DNA from: Octopus vulgaris
Taxonomy: Eukaryota
Length of the DNA stretch: 64,000 nucleotides
Direction of reading: 5' to 3'
NCBI GenBank assembly: GCA_951406725.2
Contig: OX597825.1
Coordinates: 87,482,001-87,546,000, forward strand
Shown here: positions 10,550 to 19,019 of the stretch, one piece after another
Layout: the number at the start of each line of letters is the position of its first letter
How positions within the stretch are numbered: the first letter of the stretch is position 1
The notes under the pieces: generated by a model
What the model saw: only the letters and a program-made list of their open reading frames with translations
Databases searched by the model: none
What the model was told of the DNA's origin: nothing
Made by a program: the position numbers and the translations under genes

Positions 10550-11345
10550 TAAATAATCATCCGGGTTTTCCATTTGGCAATTCTATGCCCTTAAAATTTA
10601 CTCTTTCCACCCACTTCAAAGTAAGACTTGCCAGTTAGAGATACTGAATTCCATCCCTAGACCCTCGCTGCACTTTTGCACAGTCTCAACCAGCCTCTTC
10701 CTGTCAGGATCTGTTTATGCGAACAACTTTAAATCAAGGTGGTTGAAATGAGGTCCATTCTTTCTCAGCACACTGTGCATGTTGACTTTGCGTAGGTCTA
10801 CAGAAAGTGGGACCAAGGCTATAAGAAAAATAACAGAGGTGAACAAGAATCTCCTTGGAAGATACCTCTTTTCATTGTTACCTCGACTAAGTGCTGCTTG
10901 TTACAAGGAAGACGTATTTTCCAACTACGTATGATCTTCTTAATCAATGCACACACGTTCTCAGCTATTTCACACATGTCGAGTGTTTCCAAAATAAACG
11001 AATGCGGCAACATATGGTAAGCCTTTTTGAAGTCAATCCAGGCCATGCACAAGTTTTTTCGGTACCGTTTACAGTCCTTCATTATAACTTTGTCTATCAT
11101 AAGGCGGTTCGTGGTACCCTTGGATCCTTTTTGGCATCCCTTTTCTTCTACTTGTAGCAGATTGTTTTCCGCAAGGAACTTATATATTTTCCCTGCGAGG
11201 ATACCTGTTAATACTTTTCATAGGATGGTGAGACAAGCAACGGGTCGGTAATAGCCAACCTCATTGCTTTTGACCGATCTTTCATTAACAATGTTGTTCT
11301 TCCCTCTACCATCCACTCCAGGACTGCACCACAATTGTCTAATTG
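10550..11345 (-). mobile_element. Decayed non-LTR retrotransposon RT fragment (R4/Dong-like)
   Basis: ORF 10819..11100: MAWIDFKKAY..PHS, RGIFQGDSCSPLLF. Homologous to 56620-57230. Confidence 0.85.
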
Positions 11346-13435: not shown

Positions 13436-13535
<100 letters not shown>

Positions 13536-13667
13536 TAATAAAAAGAATTCCAACCTTGTCTGATTTTCACGTTTTATTTACAATCTTATAATGATATATT
13601 ATAAGATAATATATTATAATTGAATAAAATAAAATGAAATAGTAGAATGTTAAATATTCATTCTGAT

Positions 13668-13712
13668 TGAACTAGTACTTTCATGCATTGAATTCTGCAA
13701 TCTTCGGGTTCA
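13668..13712 (-). ncRNA. Mirror copy of the minimal hammerhead ribozyme (left arm)
   Basis: Reverse complement of 18554-18598. Confidence 0.8.
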
Positions 13713-14206
13713 TGTAGTAGTGTTGACAGTCATGCTTCACAATTTTTGACTGTAGCAAGATGAGTGATTCTGTGCTATAAATACAGCTGGGTAGGCTCCA
13801 GAGTGCTAGGTTTTGCAAACTGTATTCTGACCAATCAGTGTGTAGTATCACTCAATTACTTAAGCTGATTGGTTGGTTGAGCTGATTGGTTTAGGCATCA
13901 CGCTTTGTTGGACAGGTCAAGAGTCCTGTATCTTGACCCTGGCCGAAGCAGCAATTGTTGGGTTATTTTTAGAAATGTTGTAAATATCCTTTGTCAGAGA
14001 TTTTTATATTTTTATATTTCAATTGTCATCATCATCATTGTCAGCACCTTAATTATTATTGCTAGTGGTGATGGTGGTGGCAATAGAACTTTTAACCCTA
14101 AATAAGATAATTTTCCTGCTATCTTCGTCTTGATCACCTTTAGTATTGTTGTTGTTGTTAGTGGTCATGGTCGTAGCAGTGGAAGTAATACCTCTAAGTA
14201 TTATTA

Positions 14207-16123
14207 TTATTGCTTATTTAGCTTGGGTTCTGAATTTATCAATAAAATTCTTTTCTCTGATTTTCCTCTCGATTTCACTTGGGCTGTGTAATTTGTAGAA
14301 TGGAAATATTATATATATGTTCCGACCACATGTTGCTAGGTGGTTACTCAAAGGTATCTGACGGACCTCTGGGTCTCTAATCTGTTGCCGGTGTACACGT
14401 GAGCGTTCTAATAGTGCAGTTTCCCGTCTGACCTACATATATTTCTTCACAATTTGGGCATTTGATGCAGTAAATTAAATTTCTGCTTTTGCAGTTCATA
14501 TTCGCGTTTGTGAATATTTTCCCGGTTTTTGTGTTTATATATTGACCGGTATGTATGAATTGGCATGTGCCACATCGGCTATCATTGCATTTAGATACCG
14601 TGAATGTTTGGTCTTTGTTGCTGAGGTCAAATTTTGCCTTTGTTAGTAATGTTTTCAAGTTTTTAGGCTGTCTTTTACTAAGCACCATAGCTCGATCCTT
14701 GATTATGTCTTTTAATTCATTACTTTGGGCAATGATTGGTAGGTTTGCTTTGGCAATGTTGAAGATATTCTGGTGACATGGGTTGTGTGTCACTATGAAT
14801 GGTATGACTTGTTCTTGTTTTCCTCTTCCTTGGCTTGTCCTAAGTTGTTGTATAGGTATTTTTATAGCCCGCTGTATGCCATTTTCTATAAGTAGAGATG
14901 GGTATTTTTGTTTGAGCAAAAATTCTATTAGTTCTATTAGGCGTTTGTTCCTGATATTTGCATCTTCTACAATAGTACAAATTCTTCTGCTAGGCAGTAT
15001 GGGATGTTACGTTTTGTATGTGGTGGATGGCACGACTTAAAATTTAGGTATTGATGTGTGTCTGTGTGTTTATAGTATATATATGTGGTGATGGTGGTGT
15101 CTTTTTTAATTACCATTATATCCAGGAATGGTAATTTGGTACTACTCATCTCCTTTGTAAATTTGAGAGATGGGTGTAGGTTGTTCAGGAGGATATTGAA
15201 CTCTTCCAGAGTATTTAGAGATTCTGTCCAGATTATGAAACAGTCGTCTAGGTATCTCTTCCATGCCTTTTCAATATACTTTCTAAGTCCAGTGCCATAG
15301 TTTACCTCCACCTCTTGGTAGAGTTGTTCTTCTAAGTATCCCATTACAGAGTTGGCGTAAACGGGAGCAAACCTCGTTCCCATCGCCGTGCCTCTAATTT
15401 GGATGTAATTCTTTCCATTGAAGAAGAATGTGTTATTTTCTAGAATAAGTTTGACTGTGTCTAATATAAATGGCACTGTGAATCTGCTGGGAATCACTTC
15501 TCTATGTTTTTCTAACCAGTATTTAATCGCCTTTATTCCTAAATCGTGTGGAATATTGGTGTAGAGGCTTACCACATCAAAACTTAGTAAAACTGAATTT
15601 GTTTCTGTTGTTTTGGGAAGATGGGACAGGAAGTCGATGTCATCCCTGATGAAACTTGGTATGTAAGTACATAGTGGTTTCAAAACAATGTCAATAAAAT
15701 TGCTTAGACGGTGTGTAGGGCATGCTGGACCAGCTATAATAGGTCTAAGTTTTAGGTCTTTTGGATGTAATAATTTTATGTACTCACTTTCTTGTTCTTT
15801 TACTGCCTGTTGAATGTTTTTTGATTTGTGTATTTTTGGTAAGCCGTAGAAGTTGCTGGGTTTTGGTTCAAAATTGGTGATGTAGTCTTTTTCATTATCC
15901 GTAAGTGAGTTGTGGTGTGTTGAAATCAGGTTGTTGATCTTTTTCATGATGTGGTGGTCTATATTTGCGGGTATTTCACAATAGAAGGTTGTATCCTTCA
16001 GTTGGTCTTCAACCAAATCCTTATAGTATTCGGTATCCATAATAACAATTGCACCACCTTTATCTGCTTGTTTAATTATTATTGTTTGATCGTTTTGTAT
16101 ACGTTTACATGCAGACATCTCTG
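14207..16123 (-). pseudogene. PLE RT + GIY-YIG ORF (left arm), with its own indels at ~14989, ~14418 and ~14231
   Basis: Track ORFs 14967..16142 and 14377..14919 encode nearly the same protein as the right arm but break at different positions. Confidence 0.95.
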
Positions 16124-16128
16124 TTAGG

Positions 16129-18059
16129 CCTAACATTAGCAAATCAGAGATGTCTGCATGTAAACGTATACAAAACGATCAAACAATAATAATTAAACAA
16201 GCAGATAAAGGTGGTGCAATTGTTATTATGGATACCGAATACTATAAGGATTTGGTTGAAGACCAACTGAAGGATACAACCTTCTATTGTGAAATACCCG
16301 CAAATATAGACCACCACATCATGAAAAAGATCAACAACCTTATTTCAACACACCACAACTCACTTACGGATAATGAAAAAGACTACATCACCAATTTTGA
16401 ACCAAAACCCAGCAACTTCTACGGCTTACCAAAAATACACAAATCAAAAAACATTCAACAGGCAGTAAAAGAACAAGAAAGTGAGTACATAAAATTATTA
16501 CATCCAAAAGACCTAAAACTTAGACCTATTATAGCTGGTCCAGCATGCCCTACACACCGTCTAAGCAATTTTATTGACATTGTTTTGAAACCACTATGTA
16601 CTTACATACCAAGTTTCATCAGGGATGACATCGACTTCCTGTCCCATCTTCCCAAAACAACAGAAACAAATTCAGTTTTACTAAGTTTTGATGTGGTAAG
16701 CCTCTACACCAATATTCCACACGATTTAGGAATAAAGGCGATTAAATACTGGTTAGAAAAACATAGAGAAGTGATTCCCAGCAGATTCACAGTGCCATTT
16801 ATATTAGACACAGTCAAACTTATTCTAGAAAATAACACATTCTTCTTCAATGGAAAGAATTACATCCAAATTAGAGGCACGGCGATGGGAACGAGGTTTG
16901 CTCCCGTTTACGCCAACTCTGTAATGGGATACTTAGAAGAACAACTCTACCAAGAGGTGGAGGTAAACTATGGCACTGGACTTAGAAAGTATATTGAAAA
17001 GGCATGGAAGAGATACCTAGACGACTGTTTCATAATCTGGACAGAATCTCTAAATACTCTGGAAGAGTTCAATATCCTCCTGAACAACCTACACCCATCT
17101 CTCAAATTTACAAAGGAGATGAGTAGTACCAAATTACCATTCCTGGATATAATGGTAATTAAAAAAGACACCACCATCACCACAGATATATACTATAAAC
17201 ACACAGACACACATCAATACCTAAATTTTAAGTCGTGCCATCCACCACATACAAAACGTAACATCCCATACTGCCTAGCCAGAAGAATTTGTACTATTGT
17301 AGAAGATGCAAATATCAGGAACAAACGCCTAATAGAACTAATAGAATTTTGCTCAAACAAAAATACCCATCTCTACTTATAGAAAATGGCATACAGCGGG
17401 CTATAAAAATACCTATACAACAACTTAGGACAAGCCAAGGAAGAGGAAAACAAGAACAAGTCATACCATTCATAGTGACACACAACCCATGTCACCAGAA
17501 TATCTTCAACATTGCCAAAGCAAACCTACCAATCATTGCCCAAAGTAATGAATTAAAAGACATAATCAAGGATCGAGCTATGGTGCTTAGTAAAAGACAG
17601 CCTAAAAACTTGAAAACATTACTAACAAAGGCAAAATTTGACCTCAGCAACAAAGACCAAACATTCACGGTATCTAAATGCAATGATAGCCGATGTGGCA
17701 CATGCCAATTCATACATACCGGTCAATATATAAACACAAAAACCGGGAAAATATTCACAAACGCGAATATGAACTGCAAAAGCAGAAATTTAATTTACTG
17801 CATCAAATGCCCAAATTGTGAAGAAATATATGTAGGTCAGACGGGAAACGCACTATTAGAACGCTCACGTGTACACCGGCAACAGATTAGAGACCCAGAG
17901 GTCCGTCAGATACCTTTGAGTAACCACCTAGCAACATGTGGTCGGAACATATATATAATATTTCCATTCTACAAATTACACAGCCCAAGTGAAATCGAGA
18001 GGAAAATCAGAGAAAAGAATTTTATTGATAAATTCGAACCCAAGCTAAATAAGCAATAA
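16129..18059 (+). pseudogene. PLE reverse transcriptase + GIY-YIG endonuclease ORF (right arm), 5'-truncated, one frameshift at ~17347-17350
   Basis: RT motifs IIKQADKG, FYGLPKIHK, RPIIAG, SFDVVSLYTNI, GTAMG, RYLDD, LPFLD; linker CNDSRCGTC; endonuclease LIYCIKCPNCEEIYVGQT with downstream His residues. Cys motifs fit Neptune/Naiad-type PLEs (clade is inference). Confidence 0.95.
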
Positions 18060-18376
18060 TAATAATACTTAGAGGTATTACTTCCACTGCTACGACCATG
18101 ACCACTAACAACAACAACAATACTAAAGGTGATCAAGACGAAGATAGCAGGAAAATTATCTTATTTAGGGTTAAAAGTTCTATTGCCACCACCATCACCA
18201 CTAGCAATAATAATTAAGGTGCTGACAATGATGATGATGACAATTGAAATATAAAAATATAAAAATCTCTGACAAAGGATATTTACAACATTTCTAAAAA
18301 TAACCCAACAATTGCTGCTTCGGCCAGGGTCAAGATACAGGACTCTTGACCTGTCCAACAAAGCGTGATGCCTAAA

Positions 18377-18490
18377 CCAATCAGCTCAACCAACCAATCA
18401 GCTTAAGTAATTGAGTGATACTACACACTGATTGGTCAGAATACAGTTTGCAAAACCTAGCACTCTGGAGCCTACCCAGCTGTATTTATA
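18377..18490 (+). promoter_or_regulatory. Putative PLE pseudo-LTR promoter (3 CCAAT boxes + TATA-like); mirror copy at ~13776-13889
   Basis: Seen: CCAATCAG at 18377 and 18394, CTGATTGG at 18428, TATTTATA at 18483, ~65 nt before the hammerhead. Function is inferred. Confidence 0.55.
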
Positions 18491-18553
18491 GCACAGAATC
18501 ACTCATCTTGCTACAGTCAAAAATTGTGAAGCATGACTGTCAACACTACTACA

Positions 18554-18598
18554 TGAACCCGAAGATTGCAGAATTCAATGCATGAAAGTACTAGTTCA
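18554..18598 (+). ncRNA. Minimal type I hammerhead ribozyme in the PLE 3' region
   Basis: Seen: stem I TGAAC/GTTCA, core CCGAAGA (variant of CUGANGA), stem II TGCA/TGCA, GAAA, palindromic GTAC, TA cleavage site. Known: PLE pseudo-LTRs carry minimal hammerheads with palindromic stem III. Confidence 0.8.
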
Positions 18599-18762
18599 AT
18601 CAGAATGAATATTTAACATTCTACTATTTCATTTTATTTTATTCAATTATAATATATTATCTTATAATATATCATTATAAGATTGTAAATAAAACGTGAA
18701 AATCAGACAAGGTTGGAATTCTTTTTATTAATATATTCTTCTATACACAATCACACACACCC

Positions 18763-19019
<257 letters not shown>

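Follow-up and report, generated by a model that had tools for sequence, protein, structure and literature searches.

The centre of the inverted structure studied here is a head-to-head meeting of two 5'-truncated copies of a young Penelope-like element (PLE), and the perfect 14-bp palindrome found there is the element's own near-palindrome altered by one base, an A to T change at position 16131. On balance we lean towards a microhomology join of two target-primed cDNAs from one source, accompanied by a local templated correction, as the origin of this centre. The structure lies in a window of 64,000 nt of Octopus vulgaris DNA (contig OX597825.1, positions 87,482,001 to 87,546,000 of the forward strand), and positions given without a locus name refer to this window.

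The insertion (13530-18780, 5.25 kb) is an inverted pair with (AT)n on either side, namely a left target tract at 13440-13529 and a right one at 18781-19015, and the unique flanks differ on the two sides. According to reading frames and mapping, the left arm (13530-16123, minus strand) is a 5'-truncated copy comprising RT, GIY-YIG endonuclease and the 3' pLTR region; it reaches to 2593 nt from the unit end and has no tail. The right arm (16122-18736, plus strand), also 5'-truncated and with RT and GIY-YIG, reaches to 2616 nt from the unit end and is followed by a tail of about 45 nt (18737-18780), which only this arm carries. The 5' ends of the arms are thus 23 nt apart in the element, the right (tailed) arm reaching further 5'. 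Over 1135 nt (14989-16123 and 16145-17279) the arms are perfectly complementary (100%) around a gap of 21 nt, and the inner ends at 16123 and 16145, which the original prediction had named, were obtained again when the positions were measured anew. Over their whole length the arms differ by 2 substitutions and 4 single-base indels, the latter all at short runs. The spacer (16124-16144) is sense sequence (plus strand) carried by the right arm only, while the two nucleotides at 16122-16123 (TG on the plus, CA on the minus strand) are common to both arms. In the right arm the RT profile PF00078 was found with an E-value of 1.4e-6 (28.6 bits, just below the curated cut-off of 29.6) and the GIY-YIG profile PF01541 with 5.8e-6, which is above its cut-off; a one-base loss near 17346 splits the RT from the GIY-YIG frame. 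No target-site duplication is readable in the AT tracts, the best outside match being a 9-mer distant from both ends, and the Rfam search gave just sub-threshold microRNA matches, to the hairpin and the AT tracts. Elsewhere in the window (10819-11217, minus strand) PF00078 also matches, with an E-value of 5e-9, a piece of a non-LTR reverse transcriptase that is unrelated to the element.

The family to which both arms belong is very young in this genome. In 2.8 Gb we found 430 candidates for its central stretch and 1091 exact matches to a 3' motif, and the first 100 of these 1091 matches include at least 15 head-to-head and no tail-to-tail pairs. The tandem unit has a length of 4271 nt. A DKG motif is located ahead of the RT core, and the motifs GTAMG and YLDD are present as well. 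DKG is named as diagnostic of PLEs in PMC8557442. The RT is followed by a C-terminal GIY-YIG domain, a feature of EN+ PLEs, and in copy L051 both are found in one frame of 775 aa. Tandem units with pLTRs, adjacent inverted 5'-truncated copies and a tail at one end complete the EN+ architecture; such adjacent inverted copies with a one-end tail are described as typical of EN+ elements in PMC8557442. A hammerhead ribozyme in the pLTR is typical of EN+ PLEs and absent in Naiads. Here neither an Rfam match at E-values up to 1 nor a simple core pattern was found, although divergent forms could escape both searches. For the Neptune/Nematis clade a CX2-5CxxC linker between RT and EN and a (TA)n bias are described (PMC8557442). 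With CNDSRCGTC (CX4CxxC) at residue 650 of 775 and AT tracts at all ends read, the element appears to fit this clade by linker and target bias.

The full-length copies depart from a single-ORF organization, as an upstream ORF of 430 aa extends into the RT-EN frame (9 of 13 instances). In such copies, e.g. L051:4712-8988 (minus strand), the RT-endonuclease frame lies in -1 and the overlap is about 93 nt long. It opens just ahead of an A7-TCCA-T7 run that includes, read in the upstream frame, a U_UUU_UUU heptamer. Neither a gap nor an intron joint interrupts the contigs that cross the overlap. Judging from the sequence, the 430-aa ORF and the RT-EN frame may form one protein through a frameshift, and the overlap is a candidate for programmed -1 frameshifting, which would be unusual for a class described as single-ORF; among the paper titles listed for this subject we found none on it. 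The truncated arms in the window do not include the region of the overlapping ORFs.

The palindrome at 16122-16135 was confirmed as perfect over 14 bp, and it is not extendable by even one base. In other copies the order at this place is CCAA TGTTAGGCC A AACA TT AGC (31 of 31 anchors, 29 other loci). The native sequence occupies the palindrome site in 76 of 76 occurrences in the fetched loci, overlapping loci being counted more than once, and the upstream native continuation was also found in four out of four independent contig sets. The native site is a quasi-palindrome of 18 nt with a 6-bp stem and a 6-nt loop, and its inner 14 nt correspond to the palindrome of the window. The original prediction had raised the question whether TGTTAGG, upstream of CCTAACA, is native or newly templated. 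It is native and only the A>T change is new, so that a newly templated TGTTAGG was rejected from the other copies and from the contig sets alike. The T allele at 16131 has one match in the whole genome (2.8 Gb), which led us to reject a subfamily variant too. Because TGTTAGG is native, what reads CCTAACA on the strand of the left arm represents the first bases of the right arm in antisense. The left arm had been predicted to equal the right arm minus 11 nt between CA repeats; as a literal match of strings this holds, but CCTAACA is no sense copy with a deletion, and the 11-nt-deletion parse costs the same A>T change plus a deletion. In the shortest parse the left arm stops at TG (16122-16123) and the right arm starts at the same TG, which serves as the junction microhomology, with one substitution in addition. 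A parse of the centre with zero mismatches takes three switches, with overlaps of 2, 4 and 6 nt. As predicted, the frame of the right arm is open through the palindrome (PNISKSEM) towards DKG: it reads VRPNISKSEM and further on DKG, where the other copies have NTNVRPNISKSEM, and the A>T change falls on a silent third position of a Pro codon.

Five rare variants are common to both arms of the window. Three of these are absent from every other fetched locus and one, which was checked genome-wide, occurs only in the two window arms. Another is present in two older copies (93-95% identity), of which one lacks the next marker and the other does not cover it. A donor copy with the window haplotype was not found. 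Two independent insertions can be rejected because of the shared private variants and the combination of a tailed with an untailed end; the window pair is one event from one donor haplotype. Copying of one arm from the other cannot be deduced from such sharing, since the density of shared private variants is similar in pairs with widely separated 5' ends (large-offset pairs, 0.48 per kb) and in near-symmetric pairs (0.54 per kb), both based on low counts.

Head-to-head pairs of the family were collected from pattern lists, most of which gave the first 100 places and several of which were selected allele subsets. In total 59 junctions were mapped on a real tandem copy. L067, which is in four pieces, and L083, which is older and cut at both ends, were left out of every count, so that 56 remained besides the window; extrapolating from the 3' motif matches, the family would have about 160 head-to-head junctions. 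L082 was excluded as not being head-to-head, and L047, L050 and L051 as not being pairs. The offset between the two 5' ends was taken modulo the unit. The arm-length count was made without L060 and L084, the arm-to-arm comparisons without L036 and pairs with tandem arms, and one set of arm mismatch counts that took in AT tracts was left unused.

In 43 of the 56 other junctions the truncation points are unrelated, being at least 171 nt apart. In five both arms stop 210-224 nt from the unit end (shared stop), and the remaining eight are internal and near-symmetric, with an offset of at most 37 nt, where 0.98 would be expected if ends are shuffled within search groups. None of 20000 shuffles reached eight near-symmetric junctions, hence near-symmetry is more frequent than by chance, with an about 8-fold excess. 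Of the 57 pairs, 56 combine one tailed with one untailed end, the exception being L084, which has an unresolved end; ten of the end states were read by eye. The overlap between the arms is on average 1.89 nt in the 44 insert-free junctions, against 0.68 nt in random pairs. For the original prediction, which looked to related truncation points and microhomology at other inverted copies, this is a divided outcome: the mostly unrelated truncation points speak against it, but the microhomology is nevertheless there. Inserts are found in 12 of the 56 junctions, several of them copied from nearby sequence. L074 and L080 contain short snap-back copies inside large-offset pairs, and in L066 (2755-2915) 159 nt of unrelated CA/TA-rich sequence were captured between the arms.

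Either arm can be the longer one. Among large-offset pairs it is the tailed arm in 15 and the untailed arm in 22 (n=37). In the near-symmetric internal group (n=9 with the window) the untailed arm lies further 5' in six (L032, L044, L059, L064, L071, L076; L044 is near-symmetric only modulo one unit) and the tailed arm in three (L097, L100 and the window). A bias according to which the trailing polymerase stops behind the leading one had held in 6/6 of a first sample, but both new cases were opposite, leaving 6 to 3, and it was dropped. The shared-stop pairs have offsets of 0, 0, 3, 3 and 10 nt, with either arm the longer. Their common stop lies about 30 nt behind a TATA-like motif and presumably corresponds to the transcript start. 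The 5' ends of L033, L040-L043, L053 and L054 cluster at 210-229 nt from the unit end, and this hot spot is likewise likely to be the pLTR transcript start.

Junction ends are not enriched in native stems (5 out of 86, with stems making up 5.3% of the unit), nor are their folding energies lower. The other near-symmetric ends are located outside stems and fold no better than the background, and no second junction at the stem of the window was seen among the pairs found, which cover 200 of 367 matches at that depth. Arm-specific substitutions amount to 1.4 per kb in near-symmetric pairs against 0.6 per kb in the others (few events), and arm-to-arm gaps to 1.13 per kb in tight palindromes against 0.26 per kb (AT tracts included). 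Some loci deserve separate mention. L044 and L097 are independent near-symmetric junctions at one place, 1128-1144 nt from the unit end, without a native stem, possibly a recurrent RNA end. One arm each of L073 and L074 terminates at a shared native 7-bp hairpin (3782-3789 nt from the unit end), and in L074 a 3-nt snap-back extension of this hairpin precedes the join to the other arm. At G000:C23:4574625-4599336 (L060, L087, L088) four tandem matches face three others in a 25-kb inverted array, which again is tailed at one end and untailed at the other.

The simplest common account of this survey is that two target-primed strands reached the same RNA end, were trimmed and were joined. In the reading that we prefer for the window, the element protein would prime at two internal start sites, tail and no-tail, and each end of a cut (AT)n target would prime one of two cDNA strands. 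Synthesis of both would cease at roughly one and the same RNA 5' end or break, after which the strands would anneal by their 3' ends over TG/CA and error-prone end joining would fill in. The growing strand could then jump a few bases to an opposite-sense template via GGCC and back via AACATT, writing T for A; this switch might fall into the fill-in or into a later replication of the tight palindrome. Since the longer arm in large-offset pairs can be of either kind, both arms can be primary products, and offsets of 0-10 nt in both directions at the shared stop are the pattern expected of two strands running off one RNA end. Double priming agrees with the in vitro activity of a PLE protein that cuts and extends both strands (PMC11167929), and snap-back, loop-out and trans templated synthesis are reported to occur in end joining (PMC5728401). 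Tentatively, PLEs in general could insert via two reverse transcriptases, at the tail and the no-tail site, acting on the same RNA. Near-symmetric palindromes (9 of 57, about 1 expected) would then be those cases where both ran off the same broken end, their loops being mutated or perfected by template switching afterwards.

Fold-back self-priming, which had been predicted in preference to independent insertions, is in our opinion unlikely for the window. A tail-primed cDNA would have stopped in the native quasi-palindrome, snapped back on its short stem and been copied into the left arm. Between the CA repeats 11 nt would then have been lost, by a slip or in a later deletion, a T-T mismatch would have been repaired, and at the no-tail site, in its ATATAT, the copy would have crossed over to the target; three steps are required. 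Fold-back of a single tail-primed cDNA puts the spacer on the tailed arm; if the primary strand were untailed, a further template would be needed for its copy to acquire a tail. This is the direction seen in the window, where the copy holds nothing that the primary lacks, and it is true for three of the nine near-symmetric junctions. However, the six in which the untailed arm is longer cannot be given by a simple fold-back of a tail-primed cDNA, and the untailed arm is also the longer one in most large-offset pairs, even if a 6-to-3 split is small. The window junction is situated at the edge of the native 6-bp stem, a rare element of the unit, and fold-back explains this coincidence directly. 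But the stem is weak: it folds at -1.9 kcal/mol as DNA (9 bp if G-T pairs are allowed), 21 of 200 shuffles fold equally well, and neither the other near-symmetric ends nor a second junction share such a position. The near-symmetric excess counts for fold-back and against two cDNAs, and two polymerases working along a single broken RNA would have to displace a strand. Private variants common to both arms fit fold-back too, but near-symmetric arms are no more alike than others, given the substitution and sharing densities above with their low counts. Self-priming was inferred in 2013 from palindromes at inverted PLE junctions, there on an antisense template (PMC3846280). What stands of the original prediction is thus the single donor and, likely, a short templated event at the centre, while the whole left arm would be a self-primed copy only on the unlikely fold-back reading.

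The templated part of the preferred reading has to be weighed against a plain 2-nt microhomology join of two cDNAs, in which the single-stranded loop of the 2.6-kb palindrome would have acquired the T as an untemplated lesion or through faulty fill-in, the short palindrome being perfected by chance. Of the 63 single-base changes that the spacer allows, no more than 2 would perfect it (about 3%, our own rough count). This makes a templated switch likelier than chance, and the palindrome-perfecting base is probably beyond chance. Templated changes are moreover common at junctions of the family. On the other side, near-symmetric spacers are rich in mutations: 0.09 private substitutions would be expected in their 123 nt, but 3 are present, one in each of three of the seven junctions scored (window included, two found later left out). 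The other two (L059, L064) bring no clear palindrome gain, so the T at 16131 need not be templated. With the window counted in, private substitutions are also about three times as dense in the 25 nt next to junctions as elsewhere (6 in 2550 nt, p 0.015), and there is a selection effect in that a reader notices the one case that looks perfect. We nevertheless regard the plain join as quite improbable. Because the mismatch is two pairs away from the palindrome centre, an intramolecular hairpin could hardly prime it, and an opposite-strand switch via GGCC or the repair of a T-T pair in a hairpin would be likelier routes to the T, following models in PMC5677150 and PMC5728401.

It is very unlikely that the insertion is real while its T, or its exact centre, results from faulty base calling or a wrong consensus where a long hairpin turns. 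The four one-base indels between the arms at short runs, the commoner arm gaps in tight palindromes and the fact that all 20 sequencing runs containing the stretch share 0.84 of its words would fit an error. The four contig sets examined, probably of other individuals, lack the junction, and no RNA run is recorded as containing the stretch, which is no evidence either way. For the structure as a whole the differing unique flanks, the typical pair of tailed and untailed ends and the typical 2-nt overlap argue against a read chimera.

Joining of two cDNAs is not without parallel, and twin priming of L1 was reportedly described by Ostertag and Kazazian in 2001. As in L1 twin priming, which is discussed together with fold-back junctions in bioRxiv 10.1101/2024.12.14.628481, both target ends would be primed here and the cDNA 3' ends joined by short overlaps. 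In contrast, L1 cDNAs cover different parts of the RNA, whereas here both start at the 3' end of the element and overlap wholly. The short overlaps and locally templated inserts resemble synthesis-dependent microhomology-mediated end joining (PMC5728401), and the perfecting of an imperfect inverted repeat resembles quasi-palindrome correction by template switching (PMC5677150), but these processes are described there at nuclease breaks and replication forks.

With the inverted PLE units described by Arkhipova et al. 2013 (PMC3846280) and Craig et al. 2021 (PMC8557442) the pair studied here shares the head-to-head 5'-truncation, the junction palindrome, the one-end tail and the (TA)n target. 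It differs from the units presented there by arms of 2.6 kb each that are nearly equal, and by the hundreds of near-identical copies which permit a base-by-base comparison with the native sequence. The PAc protein (Poseidon, green anole) is reported to cut and extend both target strands in vitro, to start at two internal sites bounding the tail, and to be a predicted dimer (Frangieh et al. 2024, PMC11167929). AT-rich targets are common to PAc and the octopus element, as would be tail-bounding start sites and the cutting and extension of both target strands. The octopus element appears to belong to another clade, with its CX4CxxC linker, and no hammerhead was found in it by searches that divergent forms could escape; further, both its ends carry AT runs matching the target, while PAc is described as starting without homology.

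The centre of the inverted pair is a tidy example of an already known pattern. As nearly the whole palindrome is native, its junction says less than its appearance suggests, and a single junction of this kind does not decide between mechanisms. For the origin of inverted PLE copies the published inference is self-priming from junction palindromes; among the open-literature titles listed we found none on the two-cDNA account or on junction statistics of PLE inversions. The family counts, i.e. a near-strict pairing of tailed with untailed ends, a single donor for each pair, truncation points that are mostly unrelated and a small near-symmetric class in excess of expectation, favour double priming followed by end joining. 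They are the part worth keeping, as they provide figures an in vitro system can be compared with. If true, the reading with two reverse transcriptases would mean that head-to-head PLE structures arise by this route in place of self-priming.
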